Shown: positions 1 to 52,805 of the stretch, piece by piece | Numbering within the stretch: position 1 is the stretch's first letter | Layout: each line of letters begins with the position of its first letter | Assembly: GCA_023398815.1 (NCBI GenBank) | Contig: JAEWRW010000010.1 | Span: 2,316 to 66,315, forward strand | Length of the DNA stretch: 64,000 bases | Source: Bacillota bacterium | GTDB lineage: Bacteria > Bacillota > Clostridia > Christensenellales > UMGS416 | Direction of reading: 5' to 3' | Notes under the pieces: generated by a model | The model's input: only the letters and a program-made list of their open reading frames with translations | The model's database searches: none | Told to the model about the DNA's origin: nothing | Made by a program: the position numbers and the translations under genes

Positions 1-600
1 CTGTCGTGTGCTTCGCGCACTGCTCGGCCCTGCATCCTGGCTGCTCGCCCAAGCATCCCAGGACGCCCGCGAGGCGGAGGGAAGGTACGCGAAGCGTGCG
101 ACCAGGCAACCCGAAGGGTTGCGACCAGCCAGCGGCTATGAGAGTGCAACAGACGCTCTGTTCAAGCCATAGCGGGGATTCCCAAGGGGTGCGCCCCTTG
201 GGTCGTTATCCCCCGTTCCCAACGGGCGCGTTGCGAGTTTCTCCCTGGTGATCGGCGGCAGAAAACCCGGCGACAACGGGCGGGATGTTTGAGTATGTGC
301 GTTGCGGAGCAAGGCACATGCGAGTTACCGCCGTTGCTTCTCGGCCTCGTGCCGGTCGCCAGGTCTAAGAAACTCGTCCGCGCCCCAGGCGTTTTTGGGT
401 ACTTTTGGCGCCATCCAAAAGTACCGCCTGCGGGCCTTACGCCGCATCCAGGGATGCATGGGCGAGCAGCCAGGATGGAGGCCGAACACTGTGCACAGCG
501 CACGACTGGCACATGAAGTGTGCGACCAGCCTAGGCGCTAAGGCGTTGCCTAGCAATGCGATGGGCCGGTTCTTCTCTCCTTACTCGTTCAAGTAGTATC
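1..600 (+). repeat. Mosaic intergenic repeat, partial copy at window edge (X arm 1-58, R3 core 224-448, inverted X arm 457-512)
   Basis: Long near-identical blocks are shared with 18125-18435, 24384-24690, 33714-33985, 52172-52508(-) and 40275-40345. The only ORFs here are low-complexity Arg/Pro/Ala frames. Confidence 0.85.
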
Positions 601-1233: not shown

Positions 1234-1302
1234 CTGGGCTGTGCCGCTGTGCTGGGTCTGATGGGCCCATGCCCCGCTGTCTGGCCAGCAATGGTAGCCT
1301 TT

Positions 1303-1569
1303 CGCGGCTGCCGCTGTGGCGACAGCCGCGATTCAAACAGCTTGTTCTCATTATGATCAGATCGGTCGCCGCACATGTCGCCGACCGATCACTAATTGCA
1401 GCCCTCATGCGGGTTTCTAAGGATACGTTGCGCCTGGGGGCGTTTTTTTCTGCTCGTGCTGACCCTGCTTTTCCTCCCACCGAATGAATCGGCGGGAGGT
1501 TCATCTCACTTTGCCCGTTCTGGGTTTGTAGACACTTTGAACGCCCTCCCTCGGGGGCGTTTTTTCTTT
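1303..1569 (+). repeat. R2 repeat copy 1 (about 270 nt, hairpin-rich, ends in an intrinsic terminator)
   Basis: About 80% identical by eye to 59866-60138. Contains hairpin GATCGGTCG-CCGCACATGTCGC-CGACCGATC (1360-1390) and hairpin CCTCCCACCG-AATGAAT-CGGCGGGAGG. Confidence 0.8.
1540..1569 (+). terminator. Rho-independent terminator at the 3' end of R2 copy 1
   Basis: Stem ACGCCC..GGGGCGT followed by TTTTTTCTTT. Confidence 0.6.
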
Positions 1570-5132: not shown

Positions 5133-5560
5133 GTGTGGTCCTCCTAGCTGTGGTTGGCATTGAGTTCGCCGCAGGGCGGGGTGTTTCCTGCCAATGGCGC
5201 ACCGCTAGCCCAGCAAGCACACCGTGCTCGCAGCGAGGGAAGACTTCTTGTTACGAGTGGATTTTAGCCCCTGTCTCGCATGTCGCTGAGAGGTCATTCT
5301 ACTACTTTGCCAGTGCGAGCAATCACGAGAACGCGCTGCGGCGGGAGGGGGGTGCGCGTTACGGCGAGAAGCATTGTGATGGGGTGCTGGCGGGAACTCA
5401 CTTGTCTTTCCACACTAAGGAGGGCTTGCTAAGGGGATGCTTCATTGGCGTCTCACCCTCGTTCTCCTCAGGCGCGTTGAGAGGTCTTGCGATGGCAATC
5501 GACGTGACATAGCCAACTCGCAGTTTCGCCTTGTGCGCCGCTCCGGCTATATGCGTGTTG

Positions 5561-13060: not shown

Positions 13061-13099
13061 AAACCTCCTGTTGTAGGATCGATACAGCAGGAGGTTTTT
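13061..13099. terminator. Bidirectional hairpin terminator between the surface protein and hydrogenase genes
   Basis: AAACCTCCTG..CAGCAGGAGGTTT with T-runs on both strands. Confidence 0.6.
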
Positions 13100-13337
13100 C
13101 ATGTCAACCGCAGGACAGCAAGGCAGACCAATCAGTGAAATGTGCCATTGCTTTGCGGTGCCGCAACGGTTACGACCGATGGGTGTAGGCTTTGGCTGAA
13201 AACAAAACTGACACCGTTTGAAAAACGATGCCAGTTTGGGTGATTCTTCGATTGCCTGCACTGGGGGTGGTTTCCCCTGTCCACAATCCGGGGGCTGTTC
13301 AAAGCGCCGGGCGTACGATTGCCGTTTGAGCGAGCGC

Positions 13338-17170: not shown

Positions 17171-17968
17171 ATGCATCTTTCCTTCACCACCATGGCCACG
17201 CCCGACCACACCGCCGCCGAGGCTGCGGCCCTGGGCCACAAGTTGGGCTACACCTGCATCGACCTCCGGGTCAGCGACGACCGGGGCGAACTCTCCCCCC
17301 AGGCGGGGCCGGGGGAAGTGGCGGCCCTGCGCCGGGTGCTCGATGCCGAGGGCATGACTCCGGCGGGCCTGCTGTGCTACAACGCCCGTCAGGTGGACGA
17401 CGCTGCAGGCCGCGCCGCCATGGCCGAGGACATTGTGCGGCACCTCGCGCTGGCGCAGGCGCTGGGGTCGCCGTCCATCCGGGTGTTCACCAGCGGCACC
17501 GAGGGCGGCGCACACCCTGACCGCATCCCCGTAGCCGCCGAAGTCATCGCCACGGCCCTGGCGCGGTACTCCGGCCCCGAGCGGGTGCTCATCCAGCACC
17601 ACGCCGGGCAGCTGACGGCGCTGGAGGCGGTGGACGTGCTGGAGCAGGTGGGCGACCGGCGGGCCGGGCTCATCCTGTCGCCCGATCATTGCCTCATCAT
17701 GGGGGAGGACATCGCCGCCGTGCTGCCCCGCGTCCTGCCCTGGGTGGGCCAGCTCTACGTGGCCGACGTGCGCCGCACCGCCACCGGCTACGACTGCACC
17801 CTGCCAGGTGAGGGCGAGGCCCCGCTGGACGAATCCCTGCAGGCTCTCACTGCCGCTGGCTTTTCCGGTTGGGTCACCTTCAAGTGGGAGAAGATCTGGC
17901 ACCCCGAGCTGCCCCCGGCTGAGGTGGCGTTGCCGAAATTTTTGGGATGGGTTGGGGCGCATCTGTGA
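17171..17968 (+). CDS. Sugar phosphate isomerase/epimerase (xylose isomerase-like TIM barrel)
   Basis: 265 aa with RBS AAGGAGG. The fold pattern resembles the AP-endonuclease 2/xylose isomerase-like TIM-barrel family. This is a family-level call only. Confidence 0.6.
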   Translation: MHLSFTTMATPDHTAAEAAALGHKLGYTCIDLRVSDDRGELSPQAGPGEVAALRRVLDAEGMTPAGLLCYNARQVDDAAGRAAMAEDIVRHLALAQALGSPSIRVFTSGTEGGAHPDRIPVAAEVIATALARYSGPERVLIQHHAGQLTALEAVDVLEQVGDRRAGLILSPDHCLIMGEDIAAVLPRVLPWVGQLYVADVRRTATGYDCTLPGEGEAPLDESLQALTAAGFSGWVTFKWEKIWHPELPPAEVALPKFLGWVGAHL

Positions 17969-18099: not shown

Positions 18100-18530
18100 C
18101 AGCGGGAACCGGGTGCTTCCCCGTACGCGTTGCGAGTTTCCCACAGGCGACTGGCGGCACTCTGCTTGGGACAGCCCGCGCGCCTTACGCCGCATCGTGC
18201 GGCTATGGCGGCACAAGCACCGCCATCACGGCGCTTGGCTTGACGCCATCCACGGCGTCTGGGGGCGGGATGTTTGAGGCTTTCCGTTGCGGAGCATGAG
18301 GAAAGGCGAGTTACCGCCCTCTGCTACTCACTCTGTGCCGGTCGTCTGGTCTAGGAAACTCGCCCGCGTCTCCGAGGCGTTTTTGGGCACTTTTGGCGCT
18401 TACCAAAAGTGCCGCCTACGGGCCTTACGCCGCATCCAGCGGCTATGGCGGTTGCCCTGCAACGCCATCACGGCCCTCGGCCTTGGCGCCATCCGGCCGC
18501 CTGGGCCCGCGGCAGCGCGATTCCAAGAAT
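18100..18530 (+). repeat. Mosaic repeat copy B (R3 core 18125-18435 with internal insertion, plus 3' extension module)
   Basis: Shares GCGTTGCGAGTTTCC, GGGCGGGATGTTTGAG, GCGAGTTACCGCC and hairpin GGCACTTTTGG-CGCTTA-CCAAAAGTGCC with the other copies. Confidence 0.85.
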
Positions 18531-18616
18531 ATGAGCCGGAATACCAAAACATGGGATCACAACGTAGTACGCAAAGGTGCGGCCATCCCAATATTGTGTG
18601 GTTAGGTGCTATGGCG

Positions 18617-18828: not shown

Positions 18829-20019
18829 ATGTTTGATTTACAGGGCAAATACAACACCGCCAGAATCTTTACAGACAACGTGGAGCCGGAAGCGATGGCG
18901 CAGATTCTCAATCTGCTCAACCAGGAGTTTGTCTCCGGCAGCAAAATCCGCATCATGCCCGACACCCACGCCGGTGCGGGCTGCACCATTGGTACCACCA
19001 TGACGGTGGCCGACCGGGTGGTGCCCAACCTCGTGGGGGTGGACATCGGCTGCGGCATGGAGACGGTGCTGCTGGAGGAGAGCCGGGTGGAGCTGCAAAA
19101 GCTGGACCGTGTGGTTCACGAGCGGGTGCCCGCCGGGTTTGCCACGCGGGAGAAGGCACACCCCCTGCTGGGTGAAGTGGATCTGTCTCAGTTGCGGGCG
19201 ATAAAGTAGGTCAACCGCAACCGGGCCGAACTGAGCCTGGGCACGCTGGGCGGCGGCAACCATTTCATTGAGCTTGATCGGGACGACGACGGCAAGCTCT
19301 ATCTGGTTGTGCATTCGGGCAGCCGGAACCTGGGCAAGCAGGTGGCGGAGCACTACCAGGAGGCCGCCGCCCGCGATTTATCAAAGAAAGCCAAGGATAC
19401 CAGCAAGCTCGTTGCCGAGCTGAAGGCACAGGGGCGGGAGACGGAGATTCAGGCGGAGCTGAAGAAGCGCAGCGTCCACAAGATTGATCGGAACCTCGCG
19501 TTTCTGGAGGGTGACCTGCTGGAGGACTACCTCCACGACATGGCGATCGTGCAGCGCTACGCCGCGCTCAACCGCCGGGCCATCGTGCGGGAGATTGTCA
19601 AGGCGATGGGGTGGAAGATCGGCGAGCAGTTCACCACCGTACACAACTACATCGACCTGGAGGCGATGATTCTGCGCAAGGGGGCGATCTCGGCGCAAAA
19701 GGACGAGCGCGTCTTGATTCCCCTGAACATGCGGGACGGCAGCCTGCTCTGCGTGGGCAAAGGCAACGACGACTGGAACTGCTCGGCACCCCATGGGGCG
19801 GGGCGCTTGATGAGCCGGAGCGCCGCCAAAGGGAGCATCACCCTCTCGCAGTTTGAGAAATCCATGGAGGGGATTTATTCCACCACGGTGGGCAGGAACA
19901 CCATCGACGAGTCGCCGTTTGCGTACAAACCGATGGAGGAGATCCTCCAAAACATCGGGGAGACTGTTGCGGTCATCCAAACGATCAAGCCGCTCTACAA
20001 CTTCAAGGCGGCGGAGTAG
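18829..20019 (+). pseudogene. rtcB: RNA ligase RtcB interrupted by one in-frame TAG (19207-19209)
   Basis: ORFs 18829-19209 and 19210-20019 are in the same frame. The N-terminal part has IMPDTHAGAGCTIGT. The C-terminal part has GTLGGGNHFIEL, HSGSRNLG and CSAPHGAGR (RtcB metal and GMP-His motifs). Confidence 0.8.
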
Positions 20020-20189
20020 GAGAGAACTGCCGCAGGGTTCGCGTCGCGCACGGGAAGATTCGCGCCACCCTTCCATGTTTTGTTGTGATTTCCCCATCGC
20101 CATGGGGTATCTAAAGGGAAGGAAATGATTCGTTTGCCGCTGGTGGGTGCTCCAACGGGGGAGCGCTCCGCCGGTTGACAGGAGGAACC

Positions 20190-23100
20190 ATGGTGCAAGA
20201 ACGCGACGACGTGGCGCAGATGCCCGACTTGCAGGGCTTGCTGGGGGCGCTGTGGCGGGCGGACGACCGCTGGCCCCTGGCGGTGCTGGGGCCGGGGGGA
20301 GAGCGCTTGGCGGCGGTGGGGGAGTGGCCCGGGCCGGGGTTGGCGCAGGCCAGCACCCTCCCGGTGGAGGGGGTGGCGGCCTTGGCCGTGGCCCTGCTGC
20401 CGGGCGGCGACGGCCCCACCGACGAGGCGCACCGGCAGCTGCGCCGGTTGGCGGCGCTGGTGGGCGAGCGGCTGGAGGGGTCGCCGGGCGCCCCCTACGG
20501 CGTGGCACGGCTGGTGGCCCGGCACACCGGGGATTTGGTCATCCAGACGACGCAGGACAGAGTCGTCGTCTATTGCTCCGACGAGGTGCGCCAGTTGCTG
20601 GGGTATGAGCCTGATGAGGTGGTAGGACGGCTCACTTGGGATTTCTGCCACCCGGAGGACATCGGCGTACTGGCCCGCGACGGGCAGCTCTCCGGCGATG
20701 GTGCGGCCGATGCGGTGCTGCGGATGCGGCTGGCTGACGGAGGCTGGCAGTGGATGCGTGTCCGTCGGCAGGAGCTGCGCGACGCGTGGGGGCCGGCGGG
20801 CAGGCTGTTGTGCGCGCGGCCCCTGGGCGGGCAGGACATGTTGGAGCGCGCGCTCCTCAAGGCCCTGGAGGAGAACCGGCGGCTCTATGACCAGGCGCCC
20901 TGCGGCTATTACTCCAGCGACCCGCAGGGGAGGGTTACCCGCGCCAACGACACGCTGGCGGAGCTGCTGGGCTACTCCAAGGCGGAGCTCATCGGTGTAC
21001 GTTCCATCCGCCAGATGATGCACCCCCGCGAGCAAGCCGAGTGCATCATTGCCGCCATGTGTGAGGAGCGACGGGGCAGGGAGTTTGAGGTGGAACTCAC
21101 CCGTGCCGACGGCACGCGGGTGCCGGTGCTCTTCAATGCCGCCCCTCAGTTCAACGCCGAGGGCGCGTTCACCGGCTTCCACTGCATGGTGGTGGGCATG
21201 ACCGAGCGCCGCCAGATGGAGCAGGCCCTGCGCCAGAGCGAGGAACAATACCGCCTGCTGGCTGAGCATTCGGCCGACGCCATCGTGCGGGCAGACGGCT
21301 GCGGTCGGGTGTCCTATGTGTCGCCGGCCAGCGAGCGGCTGCTGGGATACCGGCCCGACGAACTGGTGCCCCTGCCACTGGTGGGGTTGGTGCACCCCGA
21401 GGATCAGCAGACCTTCCTGGCCGCCATTGGCCCGCTACGCACGCGGGGCGGCTATTCGGTGCTCACCTGCCGGTGGATCCACCGCAACGGCGACTGCCGT
21501 TGGCTGGAGAGCCGCTTCAACTCCATCGCCGACCCGGCGACGGGGCAGGTGAGCGAAATCATTGGAATCACCCGCGATGTGACTGAACGAGTGGAAGCAC
21601 AGCAGGCCCTGCAGGCCGCCAAGGAATATGCCGAGCGGGTGATCCGCCTGGTGAACGGCGTACTCATCGTCTTTGATGACCAGGGGGTCATTCGGGAGTT
21701 CAACCGCGCGGCCGAGGAACTGACCGGCTACCGGCGGGAGGAAATGGTGGGCCAAAACTGGAAAGCGCTGAACCTGGACGTGGAGGCCATGCGGGCGCCG
21801 CTGGTGCAGAGCGTGGAGCGGGGCCAGCCGCTGCGCACCCTGGAAGGAGTGCTGCGCAGCCGCGATGGCCAGGAACACCTCATCCTTTGGCAAAACGGCT
21901 GGCAGGCCGACCAGGAGGGTGGCTATGGCGGGCTCATCGCCCTGGGCACGGACGTAACCGAGCAGCGCGCGCTGGAGGCCCAGGTGCGCCGCACTTCCCA
22001 GCAGATGGAGCTGATGCTTCGCAACATCGACGCCGTGCTGCTGCGGGTGGACCGCACCGGCGTGCTGCGGGTGATTGAGGGGCGGAACATGCGGCCGGGG
22101 CGGGGCGTGGCCAAGGCCATGCAGGGGAGGGACCTGCGCTGGCTGCGTAAGCGTTTCCCCGGGGCCGGCAAGGCCGTCGACCGGGCCATGGCCGGCCACT
22201 CGGCGCGCACCACCATCTCCCTGCGGGGGATGGAGCTGGAGTTGTCGCTCTCCCCCTACCTGGGGGCAGACGGCCAGCCCGACGGCTTCATCGGCCTGGC
22301 GGTAGACGCCACCGAGCGATACCTGGCCGAGCGCAACCTCCACGCCGAGAAGGAACGCCTGGCCGTCACCCTGCAATCCATCGGCGATGCGGTGGTCGCC
22401 ACCGATGAGCAGGGCGTGGTGACGATGATGAACGGTGTGGCCGAGGCCATCACCGGCTGGGCCCGGCAGGAGATCATCGGCCGCCGGGTGGACCACATGC
22501 TGCAACTCATGGACAGCCGCAGCGGCAAGCCCCTGCCCGACCCGGTGCAGCGGGTGCTGATGACCGGCCGGGCCGAACCCCGCACCGAATCGAACCTGAT
22601 GCTGCCCGACGGCAGGCACTGCCCCATTCAGAGCACCGTGTCGCCCATCCTCGAGGGCAGCCGGGTGCTGGGCGCGGTGGCGGTGTTTCGCGATGTAACG
22701 CTGGAGCGCCGCCGGCAGGAGGAAGTGCTCTACCTTAGCTATCATGACAAACTGACCGGCCTCTACAACCGCGCCTATCTGGAGGGCCAGATGAACCGGC
22801 TGGAGGAGGAGGGCATGCTGCCGGTGGCCATCATCATGGGCGACGTCAACGGGCTGAAGCTGACCAACGACGTCTTTGGCCATGGCGAGGGCGACCGGAT
22901 GCTGCGCACCATTGCCGGGCAGCTGACCCGCTGCTGCCACCCCGACCACGTGGTAGCCCGCTACGGCGGCGATGAGTTCGCCATCCTGCTGCCGGGGGCC
23001 GGGGAGGCCGAGGCGGCCGCCATCTGCCGCACCATAGCCGAGGACTGCTGCCAGGGGCAGGCCAGGGGCAGCACAAAACCCTCGATCTCCCTGGGTTTCG

Positions 23101-23756
23101 CCATCAAGACCGACGCCGACCAGAGCCTGGAGAGCGTCATCAAGCAGGCAGAGGACTACATGTACCGCCAGAAGCTGATGGAGAGCCGCTCCCAGCACAG
23201 CTACATGCTCTCGTCCATCCGCGCCACGCTCTTTGAGAAGAGCTACGAAACCGAGCAGCACGCCCAGCGTTTGGTGGAGCTGTCGCGCTCCGTCTGTCGG
23301 GGGCTGAGTGTGCCGGAGCAGGACATCCACGACATGGAGCTCTTTGCCATGCTCCATGACATTGGCAAGATCGCTATCGACGGGGCAATCCTCACCAAAC
23401 CTGGCTCCCTCTCCGACGCCGAATGGCTGGAGATGCGCCGCCACCCCGAGATCGGCTACCGCATCGCCCAGTCCTCGCCGGAGCTGTCGCACATCGCCGA
23501 TTACATCCTGAGCCACCACGAGCGCTGGGATGGCCGGGGCTACCCACAGGGGCTGGCCGGGGCAGAGATCCCGCTGCCGGCGCGTATCCTGGCGGTGGTG
23601 GACGCCTATGACGCCATGACCCAGGATCGCGTGTACCGCCAAGCCCTGCCACACCGATTGGCCCTCGATGAGATCGCCCGCCAGGCCGGCAGCCAGTTCG
23701 ACCCCCACGTGGCCGCCGTGTTTCTGGGCACGATGGAGGAGGACGCTGCGCCCTGA
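20190..23756 (+). CDS. Multi-PAS sensor with GGDEF diguanylate cyclase and HD-GYP phosphodiesterase domains
   Basis: Several PAS units, GGDEF motif RYGGDEFAILL and HD-GYP motifs HDIGK and HHERWDGRGYP. ATG 20190 follows RBS CAGGAGGA. Confidence 0.9.
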   Translation: MVQERDDVAQMPDLQGLLGALWRADDRWPLAVLGPGGERLAAVGEWPGPGLAQASTLPVEGVAALAVALLPGGDGPTDEAHRQLRRLAALVGERLEGSPGAPYGVARLVARHTGDLVIQTTQDRVVVYCSDEVRQLLGYEPDEVVGRLTWDFCHPEDIGVLARDGQLSGDGAADAVLRMRLADGGWQWMRVRRQELRDAWGPAGRLLCARPLGGQDMLERALLKALEENRRLYDQAPCGYYSSDPQGRVTRANDTLAELLGYSKAELIGVRSIRQMMHPREQAECIIAAMCEERRGREFEVELTRADGTRVPVLFNAAPQFNAEGAFTGFHCMVVGMTERRQMEQALRQSEEQYRLLAEHSADAIVRADGCGRVSYVSPASERLLGYRPDELVPLPLVGLVHPEDQQTFLAAIGPLRTRGGYSVLTCRWIHRNGDCRWLESRFNSIADPATGQVSEIIGITRDVTERVEAQQALQAAKEYAERVIRLVNGVLIVFDDQGVIREFNRAAEELTGYRREEMVGQNWKALNLDVEAMRAPLVQSVERGQPLRTLEGVLRSRDGQEHLILWQNGWQADQEGGYGGLIALGTDVTEQRALEAQVRRTSQQMELMLRNIDAVLLRVDRTGVLRVIEGRNMRPGRGVAKAMQGRDLRWLRKRFPGAGKAVDRAMAGHSARTTISLRGMELELSLSPYLGADGQPDGFIGLAVDATERYLAERNLHAEKERLAVTLQSIGDAVVATDEQGVVTMMNGVAEAITGWARQEIIGRRVDHMLQLMDSRSGKPLPDPVQRVLMTGRAEPRTESNLMLPDGRHCPIQSTVSPILEGSRVLGAVAVFRDVTLERRRQEEVLYLSYHDKLTGLYNRAYLEGQMNRLEEEGMLPVAIIMGDVNGLKLTNDVFGHGEGDRMLRTIAGQLTRCCHPDHVVARYGGDEFAILLPGAGEAEAAAICRTIAEDCCQGQARGSTKPSISLGFAIKTDADQSLESVIKQAEDYMYRQKLMESRSQHSYMLSSIRATLFEKSYETEQHAQRLVELSRSVCRGLSVPEQDIHDMELFAMLHDIGKIAIDGAILTKPGSLSDAEWLEMRRHPEIGYRIAQSSPELSHIADYILSHHERWDGRGYPQGLAGAEIPLPARILAVVDAYDAMTQDRVYRQALPHRLALDEIARQAGSQFDPHVAAVFLGTMEEDAAP

Positions 23757-24700
23757 CGGGCTTCGCTTTCGCGGCGGCTGCTTCGCAACCGCCGCGAGTC
23801 AGGAGAGCTCGTCACGAGTGAGTTGGGGCCAGCCACCGCGCATGTCGCTGGCGGGCTTTCGTCTGCGTTGGTCGTACTTTAATTTTACGGTGGAGACGCC
23901 GCTGCGGCGGGAGGGGTGCGTGCCACGGACGGACTGCGGCGTGCCGCTGCCGGGTAAACCGGCTACGCGGCTACCTTTTTGATGGGGCGCGCGGGGTTTT
24001 GGGCAGGAGACGCCGCCTACGGGACTTGCGCCGTCGGGCGCCTGGGCTGTGGCGGGAGGGGCCGAGTACCACGAACGGGCAGTTCCGTGCCGCTGGCGGA
24101 TAGACCACCTCGCGGCTGCGGGACATAGCTTACGAGACGGAAGTCGGTCGTACCGTCCCTTCGGGCGCGTTCGAGTTTCCCCCGGGTTGCATGGGCGAGC
24201 AATGCGCGAAGCACATGACCAGCCCGGACGGCTGGCGGCACTCGGCTGGCGACAACGGGCACGCAGGCACCCTCTTCCCAACCCTCCCCCAAACTGGGGG
24301 AGGGCGGCGAGGCCGTGGGCACACTCCCTGCGTGTATACCAATCATATGGATTGCAAGGCGGAAGTCGGTCGTACCGTCCTCCGGGCGCGTTCGAGTTTC
24401 CCCCTGGCGACCGGTGGCACTTGGCTGGCGACAACGGGCGGGATGTTTGAGCCTTTCCGTTGCGGAGCAAAAGGAAAGGCGAGTTACCGCCCTCTGGTAC
24501 TCACCTTTGTGCCGGTCATCAGGTCTTGGAAACTCGTCCGCTCGAGCACGCCGGATGCGTGCTCATCCGTTTCGGGCCGTGAGGGCGACATTCGTGTCGC
24601 CCTAGCGCCTGGATGGCGCGTAAGGCCCGAACGGGGGCGTTTTTGGGCACTTTTGCGCTTTCCAAAAGTGCCGCCCAGCGCAGCGCGTTTCCTAAAGCAT
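23757..24700 (+). repeat. Mosaic repeat copy C (H1, H2, M3, duplicated 46-nt segment, R3 core 24384-24690)
   Basis: Begins 4 nt after the stop codon with CTTCGCTTTCGCGGCGG. Internal direct repeat GGAAGTCGGTCGTACCGTCC..GGGCGCGTTCGAGTTTCCCCC at 24139-24184 and 24361-24405. Confidence 0.85.
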
Positions 24701-25005
24701 GGGTCGGGATGCCGAACCAAGGGTGTTGCAGAGGAACAAACGAAATGCGCGACCAGTTAAGCTCCTTGGCCCGCGCCAGCGTCCTGTTAACCGCGACAAG
24801 AGCAGAATCGATTGTCTCTTGGTGGGAGCATGCCGCCATTGCCCAGGCAATGATGCCGCGAAGGCCCCGTTGCGCTGCAATCGCCGGTTTGGCCCATGAC
24901 GGAGACATTTGCCCTTTAGCATATTGCAAAATCGCTAGGGTTGTCATATCATAAACAATCATCTGCTATCACTACAAAAACACCCGTAACAGGGCGGAGG
25001 TTCCC

Positions 25006-25749: not shown

Positions 25750-28311
25750 CTATGGCTTGGCGCGAACGATGGCGCTGTAGGAGCTGTAGTTTGTGCCGGT
25801 GGACGCCCTGCGGAGCGCCCGCACCTTGTAGTAGTAGGTTTTAGTGCCGCTCAGGCCGGTGTTGGCGAAGCTGGTGGCGGTCGTCTCGCCCACCCGGGTG
25901 TAGCTGCCGGATGAGGAGGAGGCACGGTACACCTGGTAGGCCGTTGCCCCTGTGACGGCGCTCCAGCGCACCGTCGCCTTGGTGGCGGCGCGCGATACCT
26001 TCACCCCGGCAGGGGCGGCGGGCGCGGGCTTGACGGCCACGGCGGCGGTTTGGGCGCTGTAGGTGCGCGTTCCGCTCACGGTGACCCAGGCGCGCACCTT
26101 GTAGTAATAGGTTTTGCTTTTGGTGAGACCCGTGTTGGTGTAGCTGGTGCCGGTGGTGTCGGCCAGCTTGGTGTAGCTGCCGGTCTTGCTGGTGGCGCGG
26201 TACACCCGGTAGCCCGTCGCGCCTTTCACGGCGCTCCAGCTCACCTTCACCTTGGTGGCGGAGGTGTGCCCCGCCTTCACCCCGGTGGGGGCGGTTGGCT
26301 TGGGCGCGGCTGACACGGCGGAGGACTTGCTGCTATAGACCTTGGTGCCGTTGATGGTGGTGCCGTTGATGGTGGCGTAGGCCCGCACCTGGTAGCGGTA
26401 AGTTCTGCCCGTCGTGAGGCCCCGGTCGGTGTAGGTCAGCGTTGACCCGCCCGACACCGATGTTATCTTGGTGAATGTGCTGGAGGAACCGGTGGCGCGG
26501 TAGATGACATAGCCGGTGGCGGCGGACGACCGGCTCCACGTGAGCTTGATGCGGTCGCTGCCCGCGCTGGTTGCCGCCACACCCTTGGGGGTGGGGAGCT
26601 TCGCGATGACCTTGACCTCAATGCTGGCCTTCACCTTGCCATCGGCCGAGAGGGCGGTGAGCGTCTCCGACCGGGAGGAGCCCAGCTTCACCGCGGTGAT
26701 GGTGCCGTCGTCCATCACGCTCAGGCCGTAGTCGTCGCTGCGCCACCGCACCGTCGTGCGCGCGCCGGCGGGCAGCGCGGTGGCGGTCACCTTGCCCGAT
26801 TGCCCCTCCACCAGCGTTAAGCTGGTCGGGCTGATCTTGAGGCCGGTGAGCGCTGGCTCCTGCACGGTGGCCCCCACCTTCAGGCGGTGGATGGTCAGGG
26901 TGGCGGTGGCGTTGCTGGTTGTCCAGTAGAGGTATCCACCGCGAAGCACCGGCTGCTCAAAGGCCGGCAGGGCAGCGGAGCCGGTCAGCTTCAGCGCCTT
27001 CTGCACGGTGTTGCCTTTGGCGTCCACAATCATGCACCAGGTGGTGAAGGAATCCTCGTAGTCGTCGGCATTGTGCTTCTCCCACAGCAGCAGCACGTTG
27101 CCGTTGGTCAGGCCCACGGCTTTGGCGTTGTCGGCGTAATAGGGGGCGGCGTAGGAGGTCAGCCACTTCACCCCGTGGTCCGTCGTTCCAGGGTCCAGTA
27201 AGAATTCGTTGTCCGACCCGGTGGGTCGGGTGCCGGTGGCCACACGGTCGGCGGTGGCAAGCTGCTGGCAGGTCGTGTCAGCCCAGTCAAAGTCCTTGTC
27301 AAAGACCTGCAGGAACAGATCCCGTGGGTCAAAGTGGCCGCCATCGTGGTTGGCGGGCGCGGTGGCCAGAGAGAGCTTGCGCTCCGACGTGGCGGCCAGA
27401 ACAAAGCCCGCCGAAACCTCGGTGACGCTGCCCAGGCGGGCGTAGGTCTCGTTGTAGCCATAGGCCCGGTTGGCCCCCTCGCGGAAGTGGAACGGAATCA
27501 TCATCTTCATGGTTGCGCCGTCGCTGCTGACGCGGGAGATGTTGAACCCCCGGTTGTGGGCATCGCCGTGGTCGGCGAACAGGAACCCGTTGGAGACGGC
27601 GACCACCTGCTGGTCGAAGGAGTGGCTGGTGTACGGCTCCTGGTAATTAAGGCGCGTCATGTCTGAGGTTTTCACCCACACCACATGGTTGGACTGGTGG
27701 CCGCTGTACATTTCCCGCGCGTAGGTACACACCAGGGTGCCATTCTTCACGATAGCGCTGCAGTTGCCCGCGTCAAAGGGGTACCTCGTACCCCAATCGA
27801 GGTCGTCGGGGGAGGTATCGCCCAGCTCCCACCCCTTGAAGCTGATGGTTTTGAGGAGCTTGCCGTTAAGGTCGTACTTGCCCACGCGCAGCACCGTGGC
27901 GGTGCCCGTGCCGGCGTCGTCGCCGTCACCCCAGATGAGATAAACGTACGTACCGTCAGTGCAGGCGCCGCCCAGCATGGGCAGGCTTTTGGCGATGGTC
28001 GCCTTGTATTCCGGCTGCATCTGGGTATTGAAGCGAACCAGATGCACCTTCCAATCGGTGCTGCCGCACCCGGCGTAGACCACGGTGTAGCGCCCCTGCC
28101 CATCAAAGAACGCTGAAATGGGCGAGCAGCTGCCCAACCACTGCGACCAGGCCGGCGAAGGGTCTCGCACGGGTTCGCCGGCGGCAAATGTCCAGGTGTC
28201 GTGGGCGGCTACGGTGGTGGTGTCGGCGGCCAGCGCGGCCGACGGCCACGCCAGCGTCAGCGCCAGCAACAGCGCCGAAGCCCACGCGAGGGGTGAGGTG
28301 CGACGAGCCAT
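25750..28311 (-). CDS. Secreted surface protein: N-terminal unknown (beta-rich) domain, Big_2-like Ig domain, C-terminal FN3 array
   Basis: 853 aa with signal peptide ..WPSAALAAD. Big_2-like segment LKISPTSLTLVEGQSGKVTATALPAGA. Three FN3 units with GYRVYRATSKTGSYTKL..SKTYYYKVRAW. Confidence 0.75.
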   Translation of the reverse strand: MARRTSPLAWASALLLALTLAWPSAALAADTTTVAAHDTWTFAAGEPVRDPSPAWSQWLGSCSPISAFFDGQGRYTVVYAGCGSTDWKVHLVRFNTQMQPEYKATIAKSLPMLGGACTDGTYVYLIWGDGDDAGTGTATVLRVGKYDLNGKLLKTISFKGWELGDTSPDDLDWGTRYPFDAGNCSAIVKNGTLVCTYAREMYSGHQSNHVVWVKTSDMTRLNYQEPYTSHSFDQQVVAVSNGFLFADHGDAHNRGFNISRVSSDGATMKMMIPFHFREGANRAYGYNETYARLGSVTEVSAGFVLAATSERKLSLATAPANHDGGHFDPRDLFLQVFDKDFDWADTTCQQLATADRVATGTRPTGSDNEFLLDPGTTDHGVKWLTSYAAPYYADNAKAVGLTNGNVLLLWEKHNADDYEDSFTTWCMIVDAKGNTVQKALKLTGSAALPAFEQPVLRGGYLYWTTSNATATLTIHRLKVGATVQEPALTGLKISPTSLTLVEGQSGKVTATALPAGARTTVRWRSDDYGLSVMDDGTITAVKLGSSRSETLTALSADGKVKASIEVKVIAKLPTPKGVAATSAGSDRIKLTWSRSSAATGYVIYRATGSSSTFTKITSVSGGSTLTYTDRGLTTGRTYRYQVRAYATINGTTINGTKVYSSKSSAVSAAPKPTAPTGVKAGHTSATKVKVSWSAVKGATGYRVYRATSKTGSYTKLADTTGTSYTNTGLTKSKTYYYKVRAWVTVSGTRTYSAQTAAVAVKPAPAAPAGVKVSRAATKATVRWSAVTGATAYQVYRASSSSGSYTRVGETTATSFANTGLSGTKTYYYKVRALRRASTGTNYSSYSAIVRAKP

Positions 28312-31183: not shown

Positions 31184-31363
31184 ACTCCGGTTGACCGCAC
31201 GTCTTTTGTTAGGACCGCGCCCCTCGCGATAGGCCCTCTGGTGGATGTTCCCCGCCATACCCCGCTTGTACCATCGTTCCCCATTGCACACCAAAGCCCG
31301 CGCCCCCCGTGGCCGGAGCCTGTTGATTCTAGTTGGCTGCCCACGGGCAGAAGGAAGGCAAGC

Positions 31364-33409: not shown

Positions 33410-34010
33410 CGCTTCGCTTGCGCTTCGCTTTCGCGGCGACCGCTTCGCGATCGCCGCGAGTTAGGTGAGCTCGTTCATAGGTTTAGGTGCCCCTTGACGC
33501 GCATGTCGTCAAGGGGCTGCTATTTGTGTTGGTCGTGCGGGGTTTCTACGAGGGAGACGCCGCCTGCGGCGAGGGGTATGCGCCACGAGAGGACCGCTTC
33601 GTGCTGCTGCCGGATAAACCGGCGACGCGGCTGCGGGACTGTGCTTGCTGAAACAGGGGGCCAAAGAGGTGCCAGACTGTTTGGGTTTCCGTCGTTCTTC
33701 CTTCGTTCTCTCCGGGGCGCGTTGCAAACTTCCTAGGTTGCATAGGCGAGCAGCAACCTGTAGGGTTGCGGCCAGCCCCCTGGCGACCGGCGGCAGGAAG
33801 CTAGTGACAACGGGCGGGATGTTTGAGCCTTTCCGCTGCGGAGCAGAAGGAAAGGCGAGTTACCGCCGTTGCCTCTCAAGCCTCGCGCCGGCCGTCAGGT
33901 CTTTGGAAGTTTGCCCGCGCCCTAGGCGTTTTTGGGCACTTTTGGCGCCATCCAAAAGTGCCGCCTACGGGCCTTATGCCGCATCATGCGACTGGTTCGA
34001 CGCCAGCGTC
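33410..34010 (+). repeat. Mosaic repeat copy D (H1, H2 33489-33517, M3, R3 core 33714-33985)
   Basis: Starts at the first base after the rho stop codon with CGCTTCGCTTGCGCTTCGCTTTCGCGGCGACCGCTTCGCGATCGCCGCGAG. Confidence 0.9.
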
Positions 34011-34288
34011 GCACTCACGGCCCTCTGCCTTGTGCCTCCCGGACGCTTGGGCCAGCGCAGCTCGTTTCCCTCGTGACAGTCATCAGATGCAGAAACACCC
34101 CCCGCCCGCACGATGCGGGCGAGATGCCGGAAAGGCGCGAAGCAATGCGATGGGGCAGCGCGGCAACTGGAAATCGGTACGGCGGTCTCAAATTTAGGAC
34201 TAAGAGCCCGCTTGCTTCTCGCAACCGGCGTATGGTTCCTCCTTGCTTGCCCCAAAAAATGTCCTTGACGCAAACCGCTTTGGCGAAT

Positions 34289-34600
34289 TTTTCCACACTT
34301 ACGGTTAGGTGGTCTAGACCACACAAATCGGCGCAATTCCGTAGGGGGAGGCAACGTGAACAGCGGTATGGCGGAGCACGGTTGAGTGTGGTTATCGACA
34401 GGGCACCTGTGAAGAACAAAGATGTTTTTTTCCACAGTCTGTGGACAATGCTGTGGGAATCAAAGCTTTTTCGCAGAAAATTGCACACAATCCACGGCAA
34501 TGTCTTGGAGAAGAGCCGAATGGCTGTCCCTCTGTGCACAGGGGAAGGCAGGCGAACGGGCATTTGCTTTGTTCACAGAGCTGTGGACAGCTGTGGATAA
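34289..34600. promoter_or_regulatory. DnaA-box cluster (oriC-like or DnaA-titration region)
   Basis: Perfect box TGTGGATAA at 34592-34600. One-mismatch boxes at 34289-34297 and 34428-34436 (TTTTCCACA), 34392-34400 (TTATCGACA) and 34440-34448 (TGTGGACAA). Two-mismatch boxes at 34569-34577 and 34582-34590. Confidence 0.6.
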
Positions 34601-35689: not shown

Positions 35690-36016
35690 GCCCCTTGCAG
35701 CCGTAGTGGCAGAAACCAGCCTGTCCGTACCACTCCTTCCCCCGCGTCAGCGCGTCTCCCCCGCGCCACCCAAGACTCCGCACACCCCACGAATACAGCA
35801 ACGGCGTGGCGGTTCATCCGCCCGCGGCAGCACTCGCCGGGTTAGAGGCACGATCCTCCTTTCCGCGTGAGCGGTGTCTCCCTCATAAACCCGGCCACGA
35901 GCTAAGTAAAATGAAGGCCCGCCAGCGACATGCGCGGTGGCGGGCCTTGGTATCATTTTGACGAGTGATCCAACTCGCGGCTGTCGCGTCAGCGGCAGGC
36001 GCGAACGTGCGTAGCG
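35690..36016 (-). repeat. Mosaic repeat, short copy abutting the uraA stop codon (H1, H2 35916-35946, M3)
   Basis: The minus strand reads CGCTACGCACGTTCGCGCC.. directly after the TAG stop. The H2 loop is CCGCGCATGTCGC. Confidence 0.8.
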
Positions 36017-37519: not shown

Positions 37520-38193
37520 CTATATGCCGAACAATGGACGGATGATGGGGCATACCGCCCAAATGTCCTGCACGAGAATGCTGCGGGGCCCGCCACAGGC
37601 CCGTTTGAGGGGCCCGCAAAGCCCCGTTTCTGCCGCCTTCCCTGTGCGGCGAACGGCTCTGCCAGAGCAGGGGGGACGTCGCCGCGGAGGCCATGGAACA
37701 AATGAATTAGCAAGGGGACTTTGCCCCTGTGAACCCACGATGGCTTTCGTTGGACGTGCGCTATCCTCATGCAGCCGCCGGGCGGTTTATTCGCCCATCG
37801 CAACGCTTCGCGCCTTCCCGTCACCTCGCCCCGCATCGTGCGGGTTGGGTGCACCCACGGTTGCACCCCGGTGCCGTCGGCCTTAGGCGCATCCTGCGCC
37901 TTGGGTTGCTCGCGCCGCTCTCAAGCGATTCTGCCGAATCGCTCTGCCGCGACGCGGGGCCAGTGGCCCAAGGCACACCGCATCATGTCCGTGGCACTCA
38001 ACCCTTCCGCGTGAGCGACGTTTCCCCCGGAAAACCCAGCACGACCTACGCAAACGAACGCCCCCTGACGACCTGTACGTCAGGGGGCGAGGCAGCACCT
38101 GTGACGAGCTCTCCTGGGTCACCTTTGACGCAAAGCGGCAAAGGTGACCCAACTCGCGGCGGTCGCGCCAGCGGCCGCCGCGAACGCGTAGCG
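37520..38193 (-). repeat. Mosaic repeat copy abutting the NIPSNAP stop codon (H1, diverged H2 38059-38089, M3, further hairpins)
   Basis: The minus strand reads CGCTACGCGTTCGCGGCGGCCGC.. directly after the TAA stop. The distal boundary is uncertain. Confidence 0.7.
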
Positions 38194-42237: not shown

Positions 42238-42560
42238 CGATCCGCTTCGCTTTCGCGTCCGCCGCTGATGCGGCGGACGCGAGGGAGATGAACTCGTCAA
42301 AACGATACCAAGGCCCGCCACCGCGCATGTCGCTGGCCGCTGGCCTCACCCTGCGGCAGACGATTCGTCAGAATCGTTGGGAGCAGGGTGAGCATTGCGG
42401 AGCAATGCGGTAGGCGGGTTTTCGTCTGTCCGGGTCGTGCTAGGCTCTGTCGGGGACGCCACTGCGGTGGGCAGGGGACGAGTGCCACGGACGTGCCAAG
42501 TGCTGCCGCTGCCGGATGAACCGGCTGGCGGCGGCCGTGGCGTAACGCTCGCCCCCTGTG
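42238..42560 (+). repeat. Mosaic repeat copy after GT2-LicD (H1, H2 42312-42345, M3)
   Basis: CCGCTTCGCTTTCGCGTCCGCCGC-TGAT-GCGGCGGACGCGAG begins 4 nt after the TAA stop. Confidence 0.8.
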
Positions 42561-45728: not shown

Positions 45729-46019
45729 CGCTGCGCCTGCGCTTCGCGTGTCGCGGCGACCGCTTTGCGATCGCCGCGAGTGGGAGGGGCTCGTTACGAG
45801 TGACTTTTTGCCGCGCGCCGCGCATGTCGCCGCGCGGCATCTGGCGTTGTTGGTCGTGCTGGGTTTCACGCAGGAAACGCCACTCACGTGGAAGGGGTGC
45901 GTGCTCCGTTCAGAGTGTTTCGTGCCGCCCGCGGATGAACCGCTTGGGCGGCTGCGGGGGACTGGGCACGCAGCAGAAGCTGGACACGCTGTCCATCGGG
46001 GCGCGGTCGAGGTTCCCCC
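45729..46019 (+). repeat. Mosaic repeat copy after the tocopherol-cyclase-like gene (H1, H2 45810-45838, M3)
   Basis: GCGCTTCGCGTGTCGCGGCGACCGCTTTGCGATCGCCGCGAG begins about 10 nt after the TGA stop. Confidence 0.8.
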
Positions 46020-51944: not shown

Positions 51945-52171
51945 AGGAACCTCCTTTGGTGCCGGTGGCGGCAGGCCCTCACCAGCCGGATGACTCCATC
52001 ATATCCCGCGGAGTTTTCAAAAGCAAGCTTGAATGTATTGCAGATTTCTTAAGGTGTGCGAGTGGGGTCTGGCCCTGGTGTGGGCGGGGTGTGCCGTTAC
52101 CCAGTGGGGGTGCACTCAATCCAGATAGCCATCCAAGGCTATATACTTCTTGGAAAACGGCGCTGCCGCGT

Positions 52172-52805
52172 GGCGGTACTTTTGGATGGCGCCAAAAGTA
52201 CCCAAAAGCGCCTAGGGCACGGACGGACTTCCAAGACCTGACCACCGGCACAAACATTGATGCAGCGGCGGGTAACTCGCATGAGTATTGCTAGGCAACA
52301 CTCATACTCAAACATCCCCGCCCGATCAGCGCCCGGATGGCGCAAGGCCGAGGGCCGTGAGTGCGACGCACAGCGTCGTACTAGCCGCAGGACGCGGCGT
52401 AAGGCCCGAGCGCTGTCACAAAACAAGAGCCGCCGATGGCCAGGGCTGGTCGCAACCCTGCGGGTTGCTGCTCGCCCATGCGACCTGGGGGAAGTCCGAA
52501 ACGCGCCCGGTGAGAACAGGAACGGAGCGCGATACGCCAAAGGGACAGGCGTCCCTTTGGAATCCCGCTACCGCAGTAACCAGAACGAGAGCCGCCCCCA
52601 GCAGCCGCGTCGCGGGTTTATCCCGCAGCGGCGCCACAATGCGTATTCGTGGTGCTAGGCCCCTCCCGCCCGTGGCGCGTTTCTCCGTGAATCCTGCACG
52701 AGCTGCAAAAAAGGAAGCCCCTTGACGACATGTGCGTCAAGGAGCGTCACCGAACACGCGAACGAATTCTTCAAACTCGCGGCCGTCGCGAAGCGGCGGA
52801 CGCGA
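52172..52805 (-). repeat. Mosaic repeat copy E, inverted, abutting the comB stop codon (H1, H2 52718-52744, M3, R3 core 52172-52508)
   Basis: The minus strand begins GTCGCGTCCGCCGCTTCGCGACGGCCGCGAG directly after the TAG stop. The R3 hairpin stems carry compensatory changes. Confidence 0.85.

Follow-up and report, generated by a model that had tools for sequence, protein, structure and literature searches.

A hairpin-rich mosaic repeat family that abuts stop codons in gene orientation in an uncultured Bacillota lineage

Introduction

The REP and BIME elements of enterobacteria are extragenic GC-rich hairpins at the 3' ends of genes that are co-transcribed, attenuate transcription and protect mRNA, and many of them lie 15 nt or less from a stop codon. 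A REP consists of one palindrome of 20 to 40 nt with a GTAG foot, REPs alternate in orientation within BIMEs, and REPINs are inverted pairs tied to RAYT. RIME of Rhizobium and the pneumococcal BOX are modular intergenic repeats of 100 to 200 nt with several palindromes and without coding capacity or a known transposase. The MIRU of mycobacteria are reported to be tandem intergenic units that are oriented with their flanking genes and whose ends overlap the upstream stop codon; they measure 40 to 100 nt and are found inside operons, where their small ORFs couple translation to that of the next gene. The attC sites of integrons (VCRs in Vibrio) are imperfect palindromes at or just past the stops of unrelated ORFs, oriented with the ORF and read as one folded strand; they occur in one-directional cassette arrays next to intI and have R''/L''-L'/R' boxes and a GTTRRRY core. 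The PATEs of IS200/IS605 have a subterminal left-end hairpin, are oriented 3' of a short sequence and lack terminal inverted repeats and target duplications.

In this study, we examined a 64-kb window (64,000 nt, the whole stretch analyzed) of a metagenomic contig recovered over 79 kb, in which an earlier note had pointed out hairpin-rich repeats that start at the stop codons of unrelated genes and recall REP and BIME elements. This analogy holds for the logic, i.e., abundant extragenic GC-rich hairpin repeats with mosaic modules at gene 3' ends, but the short single palindrome and the alternating orientation are absent, as is RAYT from the sequence accessible to us, and the family is REP/BIME-like in logic without being a member. 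Its unit, about 230 nt in length and as long as about 650 nt in composites, contains at least three different covarying hairpins and has no conserved GTAG foot. The copies are co-oriented, head-to-tail and locked to the gene, and the stop triplet is apparently part of the unit. No RAYT gene was seen in the 79-kb contig or in about 50 kb of loci from a related MAG.

With RIME and BOX the family shares modular palindromes whose loops are conserved and modules that vary in number. It differs from them by the absence of sequence similarity and by phylum; abutting of stop codons and a strict sense orientation are not reported for these repeats. Unlike MIRU, it is hairpin-rich, lies at the ends of transcription units and conserves no frame; the mini-ORF feature is absent, with three equally open frames and a leader period of 11 nt. 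With attC sites it has in common the palindromes at unrelated stops, the ORF orientation and the reading as one folded strand. Its copies, however, follow housekeeping genes (rho, uraA, comB) on both strands, the sole GTT-type motif, GTTGGTC, does not fit GTTRRRY, and no integrase was seen. The PATEs resemble it in all the features named above, but PATEs insert 3' of one fixed tetra- or pentanucleotide and the target here would be only T-R-R, the orientation is set by the gene rather than the replication strand, the variable 3' ends show no right-end hairpin at a defined terminus, and no TnpA or TnpB was seen. MITEs, which are non-autonomous DDE transposons, differ by their terminal inverted repeats. 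These are absent here: the 5' sequence CGCTTCGCTTTCGCGG does not recur in inverted form where the unit ends (..GCGGCTGCGGGG). The motif GCGAAGCG occurs only far downstream, in another module.

Results

The recovered contig carries 12 strong copies and 1 weak partial copy of the repeat, a noncoding, hairpin-rich unit of about 230 nt that extends to long composites of up to about 650 nt. All seven copies listed in the earlier note were recovered at their positions and on their strands. They are not the full set, since two copies of a diverged subfamily (A2, at 1287-1554 and 59832-60123) and a partial unit at 23965-24124 were found in addition, and the contig contains three more beyond the limits of the window. 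A diagnostic pattern matched 4 times, compared with 0.00 matches expected from shuffles. Also, 11 of the 13 contig copies start no more than 10 nt past the stop codon of a gene on the same strand, whereas 0.46 would be expected (P ~9e-18). The repeat family and its placement at stop codons are real and far beyond chance. Furthermore, the element-bearing stretches are covered at 99.9 to 100% identity by contigs from other samples (L065 and L067), and the repeats are therefore not an assembly artefact. The copies and associated modules in the window are the following.

181..515, plus strand: R3 module that follows an A2 copy just outside the window, itself located after a nitroreductase gene
1287..1554, plus strand: A2 copy, 58-66 nt past the MarR stop (1231-1233), with a noncoding TAG directly before it; 96 bits (covariance model, CM)
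5213..5368, plus strand: degenerate partial copy without H1; 23.6 bits only
18109..18549, plus strand: R3 module without a recognizable A unit, about 140 nt past the stop of an AP-endonuclease-fold gene (17171-17968) in the same orientation
20175-23756, plus strand: PAS-GGDEF-HD-GYP gene with a TGA stop at 23754-23756; the element begins at the next base
23757..23975, plus strand: full A1 unit after the PAS-GGDEF-HD-GYP gene, assigned by alignment and covariation; nhmmer 175-181 bits, CM 106 bits
23965..24124, plus strand: second, partial unit that comprises the 3' half of A1 and forms a tandem with the 23757 unit; nhmmer model positions 97-224, direct repeat D1
24366..24717, plus strand: R3 module of a long composite, co-oriented with the 23757 unit; R3 profile 270 bits, repeats D2, D6 and D7
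33410..33640, plus strand: A1 unit whose leader comprises two 11-mers, immediately past the rho stop (TGA 33407-33409); 112.6 bits (CM)
33690..34087, plus strand: R3 module after the rho copy, 335 bits; forms a long composite of about 650 nt with the A1 unit
35796..36016, minus strand: A1 unit directly after the uraA stop (TAG 36017-36019, minus); orthologous copy in the MAG, L039 4077-3855
37765..38193, minus strand: A1 unit directly after the NIPSNAP stop (TAA 38194-38196, minus), with an extra linker hairpin
42238..42535, plus strand: A1 unit after the GT2 stop (TAA 42235-42237)
45729..45963, plus strand: A1 unit that immediately follows the stop (TGA 45726-45728) of the tocopherol-cyclase-like gene
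52129..52568, minus strand: middle and R3 modules of the comB long composite, in the same orientation as the comB unit
52592..52805, minus strand: A1 unit directly after the comB stop (TAG 52806-52808, minus), without leader; H1 begins 1 nt past the stop
59832..60123, plus strand: A2 copy, starting 8-24 nt past the stop of an ABC-2 permease gene (59821-59823); 90 bits (CM)

In the window, self-BLAST detects repeats over about 6.0 kb; coding fn3 repeats account for about 0.95 kb of this total. The earlier estimate of about 7.5 kb is roughly right only if the unique spacers in repeat-filled intergenic regions are counted. Repeats make up roughly 10% of the recovered contig DNA, and two spurious ORF calls were noticed inside them.

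The module order proposed in the earlier note was reproduced by our analysis: a leader, hairpin H1, a linker with GCTCGT, hairpin H2 (loop CGCGCATGTCG), the block GGTCGTGC..GGGTTT, hairpin H5 (loop GATRAAC) and, in long copies, R3. In A1 units the leader is 11-nt periodic and reads TNN+CGCTTCGC, followed by H1, H2 and H5, and H2 has a T-rich tail; A2 is a diverged subfamily with canonical terminators. The claim that all copies open with the leader fails at comB, where CGCTTCGC is missing. The copy after the PAS-GGDEF-HD-GYP gene illustrates the layout (all on the plus strand).

23757-23767, plus strand: leader, sequence CGGGCTTCGCT
23768-23798, plus strand: H1
23799-23827, plus strand: linker with GGAG and GCTCGT
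23828-23856, plus strand: H2, loop CGCGCATGTCG
23857-23868, plus strand: T-rich tail
23870-23878, plus strand: GGTCGT block
23896-23910, plus strand: short hairpin
23943-23971, plus strand: H5, loop GGTAAAC

The stems of H2 and H5 are wholly different between copies, while their loops are constant, and the center of H2 is a palindromic RCATGY. R3 is a second structured module with a covarying hairpin of its own; at 24366..24717 its core reads GGGCGGGATGTTTGAG, a variable stem, GTTGCGGAGCA, a stem and GCGAGTTACCGCC, and is followed by the hairpin GGCACTTTTG..CAAAAGTGCC. Modules and tandem units are all arranged head-to-tail in one direction. Other small hairpin elements sit nested within copies: in the NIPSNAP copy an insert of about 170 nt (~37796-37962), with TGGGC on its flanks, splits H5, and in the GT2 copy a hairpin element of about 75 nt (~42338-42414) splits the H2 stem. 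The A2 copy at 1287..1554 contains two canonical terminators, GCGCCTGGGGGCG+T7 and GAACGCCCTCCCTCGGGGGCG+T6, and the one at 59832..60123 has an extra hairpin before H1 as well as internal terminators.

Analysis of the junctions supported the claim that copies abut stop codons in sense orientation to the upstream gene, which applies to 11 of the 13 copies on the contig. Both enrichment at gene 3' ends and orientation bias were seen in all sequence accessible to us. The wording "always in the orientation of that gene" is too strong, since the copy at 5213..5368 is antisense to both of its neighbors (GH113, 4113-5132, minus; LicD, 5761-8535, minus) and two copies in relatives are not in gene-3' sense. 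Likewise, a start 0 to 10 nt past the stop is not universal, as seen for the copy at 1287. In the MAG, array heads abut real genes in 10 of 14 cases, and these genes have GC3 values of 0.80 to 0.91. The GC skew is uniform across the window and copies are present on both strands, which indicates that the orientation follows the gene and not replication. The genes bearing copies are functionally unrelated, and the units lie at the ends of transcription units, also between convergent genes.

The stop codon is followed by CG in six of the seven copies listed in the earlier note, just as it had observed. All three stop codons occur at junctions, with TAG accounting for 11 of 23 junction stops compared with 6 of 43 background stops (P = 0.006). 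C occupies the +4 position after the stop in 10 of 12 heads versus 13 of 43 background genes on the contig, and a count over 21 heads gave 16 with C. Furthermore, the leader has TAG or TAA immediately before it in copies away from genes as well (window positions 1295-1297, L069, L038 at 3865 and L009 at 3489), and one ORF reads through TTT at the stop position into the element. These observations lend support to the suggestion that the stop belongs to the element, and the excess of TAG together with the ORF that continues into the repeat makes it probable that the stop triplet is the element's own. Upstream of the copies, only T-R-R is common to all. The commonest distance from stop to H1 equals one 11-nt leader unit; it falls to 1 nt at comB and rises to 22 nt at rho, and A2 copies show a spacing of 8 to 66 nt. 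The native gene ends are kept: rho ends in ...VNK* here and in ...INK* in a relative, and the C terminus of comB matches those of solved homologues. At their 3' boundary, single copies show no second stop triplet; with 3' ends as variable as these, this is a weak test for a target-site duplication.

The hairpin structure is conserved in a strand-specific manner. In the alignment, 95.2% of cells are paired compared with 84.9% in shuffles, none of which was as good (0 of 500), compensatory changes occur in 15 of 31 pairs, and slid controls reached a pairing of only 32 to 50%. On the gene-sense strand, G-U exceeds A-C by 43:5 (27:5 without one fixed pair). Also, the sense RNA of the whole unit folds about 12 kcal/mol better than the antisense RNA in 18 of 21 copies. 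This preference is restricted to the whole unit, as the same comparison for single hairpins was uninformative or opposite for H1 and H2. Between H2 and H5, where the MAFFT alignment is too unstable, a covariation scan for extra helices gave only noise. Two further pairings, noticed in some minimum-energy folds and by eye, were set aside as ideas, namely, a helix closing the leader onto the GGAG linker and an alternative GCGAGU/GCUCGU pairing; the columns are nearly invariant and show no covariation support. The open length past the stop is alike in the three frames (medians of 30, 23 and 31 codons). With no frame preference, the element is not coding, and a read-through peptide was rejected on this ground, together with the 11-nt leader period and the compensatory stem changes.

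Several features are terminator-like. An intrinsic (Rho-independent) terminator is one hairpin of 30 to 50 nt that does not form a dispersed family; the unit resembles it by the GC-rich H2 with its T-rich tract, by the textbook terminators of A2 and by its place at rho, and differs by the added leader, H1, H5 and R3 and an interrupted U-tract after H2. H2 has a GC-rich stem of 10 to 11 bp and a dG of -17 to -26 kcal/mol in 19 of 21 copies (-8 and -12 in the two weaker ones). Its 10-nt tail contains a median of 5 T, compared with 21% T in the element overall. Three copies passed a terminator scan, and A2 copies have canonical terminators of a hairpin plus T7. At the rho locus, relatives without the element have an ordinary terminator 30 to 40 nt past the same stop, which the element replaces.

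The family was found only in this genome, in one related MAG, where it forms tandem arrays, and, in diverged form, in a few relatives. Across 185,579 species genomes, the diagnostic pattern matched this one MAG plus 41 chance loci; the latter were confirmed as such by profile and covariance-model searches, with at most 24.7 bits compared with at least 38 bits for true copies. A metagenome scan returned eight loci, all by chance, and viral contigs, plasmids and phages gave no match. Like the earlier note, which did not recognize a described family, we found no catalogued RNA family or repeat that matched in the libraries searched. In an Rfam search of the whole window at gathering score, only two tRNAs reached the threshold, and in E-value mode on two element-rich stretches the best element match scored 19.5 bits under a model with a gathering score of 93. 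Literature searches, which were also without the primary papers on REP and MIRU, yielded no description of the family. The reported absence of transposase, RAYT and integrase genes from the window extends to the 79 kb recovered, in which recombinase and reverse transcriptase genes were not found either.

Only rho and uraA are syntenic with the MAG, and both loci are filled in both genomes. At rho, the single unit seen here corresponds to 3.5 tandem units at the same position in the MAG (L039), and one other MAG locus contains 5 tandem units. Orthologous copies are 77 to 85% identical, compared with 82% at 4-fold sites, and whole H2 stems are swapped. Orthologous copies thus evolve at about the neutral rate, which fits weak sequence constraint and is compatible with a largely selfish element. 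Between L062 and L068, similarity ends exactly at the stop codon of an AraC gene; a clean insertion was rejected as the explanation, since two extra genes also differ.

Discussion

We give about an even chance to the reading that the repeat is a lineage-specific, non-autonomous cassette that acts at the RNA level as 3' untranslated region and terminator and spreads as a mosaic repeat. Its transcription, its terminator or stabilizer activity and its mode of spread are what we infer from the arrangement described above. Read on the gene-sense strand, the unit would most likely be transcribed into RNA together with the gene before it. It could provide a ready-made gene end that begins with a triplet of the stop type (TNN, in many cases TAG), joined to the 11-nt-periodic leader CGCTTCGC, and continues with the very stable H1 about 11 nt past the stop. 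H2, with a U-rich tail in A1 or a canonical terminator in A2, may then end or attenuate transcription and block 3' exonucleases, and further hairpins (H5, plus R3 in long copies) lie downstream. At the DNA level, the repeat may multiply when units are amplified locally in tandem and when copies exchange modules, whereas new loci would be seeded by a mechanism that probably acts in trans and is not encoded in the 79 kb seen. Several observations speak against the cassette. The U-tract of H2 is imperfect, though the organism also uses textbook terminators, and efficient termination at H2 leaves the conserved downstream H3 to H5 and R3 unaccounted for. A stabilizer or terminator would work equally well 20 to 50 nt past the stop, so that neither the precision of 0 to 6 nt nor the enrichment of TAG and +4 C is accounted for. 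Orthologous copies evolve at about the neutral rate, and a few copies are antisense or away from gene ends.

One rival reading is a purely selfish mobile element with a true stop-triplet target. It would be inserted in one orientation 3' of T-R-R, guided by the subterminal H1, by a trans-acting enzyme of the HUH IS200/IS605 or RAYT kind or a site-specific recombinase; copies inside genes would be purged by selection, and the hairpins would be recognition structures instead of RNA signals. The stop-type triplets before copies away from genes, the TAG excess at junctions, the end of similarity at the AraC stop and the subterminal hairpin without terminal inverted repeats or target duplication, as at IS200/IS605 ends, agree with this reading, and the small hairpin elements clearly inserted into copies indicate that DNA-level mobility is active here. 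We nevertheless regard it as unlikely. The contig offers 399 intergenic TAG/TAA sites and 30 gene stops, yet 11 of 13 copies are at gene stops, and a simple TAG/TAA target was rejected as the full cause of stop adjacency. Moreover, the orientation follows genes on both strands under a uniform GC skew, unlike that of the lagging-strand-biased HUH elements, no gene for a candidate enzyme was found in the 79 kb, and the excess of G-U over A-C fits RNA, though single-stranded DNA might fit as well. A further reading, which we consider quite unlikely, is a mobile gene-end cassette whose 5' triplet becomes the stop of the host gene and whose placement senses the end of a reading frame and not a DNA motif. 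Sensing of this kind might be coupled to translation termination or the mRNA 3' end, e.g., by RNA-templated copying or by ribosome- or terminator-guided integration. It would account for the 85% of contig copies at true stops while more than 90% of the tolerated TAG/TAA sites lie elsewhere, and an ORF without a stop at the junction would simply read into the element. We know of no bacterial elements that target stop codons as such.

Tight spacing would follow if the unit needed to touch the terminating ribosome as a cis-acting RNA, its weak +4 C context and the stable hairpin about 11 nt downstream modulating termination, release or rescue, or mRNA fate, as REP elements within 15 nt of stop codons reportedly do in Escherichia coli. 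The prevalence of +4 C and the commonest stop-to-H1 distance of one leader unit fit this proposal, and GCGAGU at the base of H1 can pair with either the 5' arm or the invariant GCUCGU, leaving a GGAG loop, which could be a switch. We judge it decidedly unlikely, given that the spacing varies at comB, rho and the A2 copies, that all three stop codons are in use with no frame kept open past the stop, that the alternative pairing lacks covariation and that the genes concerned are unrelated in function. The location at transcription-unit ends, the long GC-rich palindromes and the RCATGY at the center of H2 could instead mark a DNA-level site for a nucleoid protein, gyrase or a recombination system, as proposed for some BIMEs. 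Such a site is very improbable here: the asymmetric loops hold one orientation relative to the gene, and G-T is tolerated far above A-C on one strand only, which argues against a duplex or cruciform function. Just as improbable is a multicopy family of independent small RNA genes that lie downstream of other genes by happenstance. A conserved secondary structure with fixed loops and the covarying hairpin of R3 would suit RNA genes, whereas the units start at the stop codon with no conserved promoter-like motif before them, tandem arrays and 3'-truncated copies are atypical of such genes, and there is no Rfam match.

In practice, repeats of this type break metagenome assemblies and yield spurious ORF calls. 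If the reading as an RNA-level gene-end cassette is true, a single repeat family would furnish a sizeable share of the genes in an uncultured Bacillota lineage, about 1 in 5 on the recovered contig, with their stop context, their terminator and the structure of their 3'-UTR. Nature would then provide a clear example of how a portable gene-end module reshapes post-transcriptional control throughout a genome. For synthetic biology, the unit would be a compact and structured part for 3' ends, available in many natural variants. More interesting still is the precise placement at the stop triplet: either the unit must touch the terminating ribosome to function, or gene ends are recognized by an insertion mechanism of a new kind. 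Both answers would deepen the understanding of site choice by REP-like repeats.

Repeat units and their architecture

The window has a G+C content of ~64% and lies within the 121-kb metagenomic contig ena:ERZ27269017 k141_43254, of which we analyzed 79 kb (the window plus 9.2 kb upstream and 5.8 kb downstream, reached via two window proteins). Contigs from other samples (L065 and L067) match the element-bearing parts at 99.9 to 100% identity, so the repeats are not an assembly artifact. An earlier note had claimed seven copies in a fixed module order behind PAS-GGDEF-HD, rho, GT2, tocopherol-cyclase-like, comB, NIPSNAP, and uraA genes; all seven were found in place, the gene names agree with Pfam, and the order of parts is constant across the seven. 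The closest annotated Rho relatives belong to uncultured Bacillota/Clostridia. A 21-base diagnostic pattern matches four times in the window (0.00 expected). Additional copies were obtained by profile and covariance-model searches.

Parts of the repeat unit (~230 nt, 5' to 3') and additional copies
Leader: 5' end of the unit, CGCT(T/A)CGC
H1: hairpin after the leader
Linker: between H1 and H2, contains GGAG and an invariant GCTCGT
H2: hairpin with fixed loop CGCGCATGTCG and T-rich tail
GGTCGTGC..GGGTTT block: after the H2 tail
Short hairpin: between the GGGTTT block and H5
H5: hairpin with fixed loop GAT(A/G)AAC
1287-1554: diverged copy, subfamily A2
59832-60123: diverged copy, subfamily A2
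23965-24124: partial second unit
5213-5368: degenerate partial copy
Just beyond the window: three further copies

The long copies behind the PAS, rho, and comB genes are colinear across ~650 nt and then run on into R3, a second structured module with its own covarying hairpin. A ~75-nt hairpin element (42338-42414) interrupts the H2 stem of the GT2 copy and recurs after H5 in the related metagenome-derived genome "Bacillota bacterium OH_CBB_43" (the MAG; locus L039, 1935-2010) with TGGGG at its flanks, and a TGGGC-flanked insert of ~170 nt (37796-37962) interrupts H5 of the NIPSNAP copy. Each has the look of a mobile module in its own right, bounded by short direct repeats, and their nesting within copies shows that related modules are still mobile at the DNA level.

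Other features of the window

Public gene calls place ORFs of 182 and 189 residues (34015-34563, minus strand, and 24191-24760, plus strand; 12652-13200 and 2828-3397 in the coordinates of retrieved locus L058) wholly within repeat composites; these are very likely spurious. The following features were also observed.

3-66, 444-506, 39885-40337, and 46019-46281: additional non-coding repeat family (the "tandem units" of the earlier note), in both orientations, also in local tandem, and in part joined to the long composites
12437-12883 (+) and 25817-26434 (-): DNA repeats of ~70% identity in the genes for two large surface proteins that carry fn3 and Listeria-Bacteroides repeat domains; being coding, they fall outside the non-coding family, but they raise the repeat total of the window
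18940-20019 (+): split RtcB RNA ligase frame, with one ORF matching Pfam RtcB positions 13-88 (ending at 19209) and the next matching 185-425 (19309-20019), and ~100 residues unaccounted for in between; possible explanations are a pseudogene, a frameshift, and an intervening element
21071-21170 (+): 100-nt "tRNA-Val" called by ARAGORN inside the PAS-GGDEF-HD coding region, probably a false positive since Rfam gave no match

Structure and strand

H1, H2, and H5 are 95.2% paired in the 21 full copies, with both-sided changes at 15 of 31 pairs. None of 500 shuffles equaled these pairing and covariation values, and slid partners paired at just 32 to 50%. The stems of H2 and H5 exist in several wholly different self-complementary versions around constant loops. 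G-U pairs outnumber A-C mismatches 43:5, the sense RNA of the whole unit folds ~12 kcal/mol better than the antisense in 18 of 21 copies, and no reading-frame signal was found 3' of the stop. Taken together, these observations favor a structure that is read from the gene-sense strand. The simplest form would be RNA cotranscribed with the gene, with single-stranded DNA as a possible alternative.

Placement at gene ends and junction with the stop codon

Of the 13 copies on the 79-kb contig, 11 begin ≤10 nt from a same-strand gene stop codon, compared with 0.46 expected when each copy is moved at random inside the intergenic region it occupies and its strand is also drawn at random (P ~9e-18). 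Minus-strand copies sit behind minus-strand genes despite a GC skew that is uniform over the window; orientation thus tracks the genes and not replication. The claim that copies start at the stop codon, always in the orientation of the gene, stands for these 11 but has exceptions: both genes next to the partial copy at 5213-5368 run antisense to it, the copy at 1287 lies ~60 nt downstream of its gene, and in relatives one copy is antisense and another lies in a divergent promoter region.

To judge from comparison with homologs, the Rho and comB gene ends upstream of the units are native: Rho ends in ...GYQMVNK* in the window and ...GYQVINK* in an element-free relative, and the end of comB coincides with that of solved homologs. 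Rho (31241-33409, plus strand; 681 to 722 residues overall) carries a long N-terminal insertion, and its C-terminal tail extends ~14 residues beyond solved Rho structures; both are kept in the MAG.

The leader consists of one to three units of a tandem 11-mer, TNN+CGCTTCGC, whose first TNN is the stop codon of the gene. All three stop types are represented at junctions. TAG accounts for 11 of 23 junction stops, compared with 6 of the 43 stops found elsewhere on the contig (P = 0.006), and a C follows the stop in 10 of 12 versus 13 of 43. Four copies away from gene ends also have TAG or TAA ahead of the leader. Furthermore, a Cys/Met-metabolism PLP enzyme gene on the same contig, ~1.4 kb past the window end (L066, 16345-16394), has TTT and no stop at the junction, and its ORF runs 14 codons into the leader and H1, reading ...EDIEQSF up to the junction and RCAFASAADATAAI* beyond it. 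These observations lend support to the earlier suspicion that the stop-type triplet is part of the element, which it probably is. In about four genes the terminal codons themselves resemble the leader (...ALR*, ...PLR*). A plain TAG/TAA insertion target was ruled out as the cause of the bias: the contig holds 399 intergenic TAG/TAA sites versus 30 serving as gene stops, so such a target leaves the precision of placement unexplained. This precision at the stop triplet is the most interesting point of the family.

Distribution and evolution

In a scan of 185,579 species, one genome each, the MAG alone carried the family, and the 41 further loci that matched did so by chance. A covariance model of the 5' half sets the classes cleanly apart (true copies, 38 to 113 bits; 49 chance loci spanning ~390 kb, ≤24.7 bits). 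Nothing belonging to the family turned up in metagenome, viral, plasmid, or phage collections or in Rfam. The MAG carries head-to-tail arrays of 3.5 and 5 units, again with R3 behind, and 10 of 14 array heads adjoin real genes. The rho and uraA positions are common to both genomes.

In more distant relatives the murA-GT2-rho synteny persists, but an ordinary terminator lies 30 to 40 nt past the rho stop. One distant relative has A2-type copies elsewhere, one of them 0 nt behind the stop of an AraC-family gene, where a sister genome (91% identical) has an ordinary hairpin. Behind rho in element-free relatives we also observed a different hairpin repeat family (AAATCCCCCCTG...GACATCCCCCC; L059, 12130-12620) and an IS91-type Y2 transposase, a tyrosine integrase, and a DDE transposase (L068, 13149-16894).

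Between the window genome and the MAG, orthologous units share 85% (uraA) and 77% (rho) identity, versus 82% at four-fold degenerate sites, and differ by whole H2 stem exchanges and in unit number. Such a pattern is consistent with turnover through local amplification and inter-copy exchange, with constraint on structure and not on sequence. The 79 kb contain no gene for a transposase, RAYT, recombinase, or reverse transcriptase, which extends the earlier observation that the window lacks a transposase, RAYT, or integrase. The spacer that separates the uraA copy from the flavodoxin gene (35515-35795) is 92% identical to the MAG; being more conserved than the 82% at four-fold sites, it may hold an unrecognized regulatory or RNA feature.

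Likely function and relation to known families

The GC-rich H2 stem is 10 to 11 bp long. Its ΔG lies between -17 and -26 kcal/mol in 19 of the 21 copies (-8 and -12 in the other two), and the tract behind it contains a median of 5 T per 10 nt (element overall, 21% T). Three copies passed a terminator scan, and the A2 copies hold textbook hairpin-plus-T7 terminators. Since the unit occupies the place of the rho terminator in relatives, the best-supported reading is that of a portable 3'-end cassette: stable hairpins would start right behind the stop codon, and a terminator or attenuator in the unit would end or stabilize the mRNA. This cassette reading leaves the structural conservation beyond H2 unaccounted for.

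The mosaic logic is nearest to REP/BIME, RIME, and BOX repeats, and the stop-codon contact with gene orientation is nearest to MIRUs and integron attC sites, but the family fails to show the defining features of any of these. A single short palindrome as the unit was ruled out, and the family has no alternating or inverted pairs, terminal inverted repeats, target duplications, conserved mini-ORF, or integron context. The REP/BIME analogy of the earlier note is therefore close in logic but lacks the single short palindrome and the alternating or inverted pairs, while its failure to recognize a described family is borne out by Rfam and the other collections searched. We file the family among extragenic structured repeats at gene 3' ends, as one undescribed in the libraries searched. 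Its unusual feature is the stop triplet fused to the repeat together with near-exact anchoring at gene ends, which might hint at something new should a mechanism for it be found.
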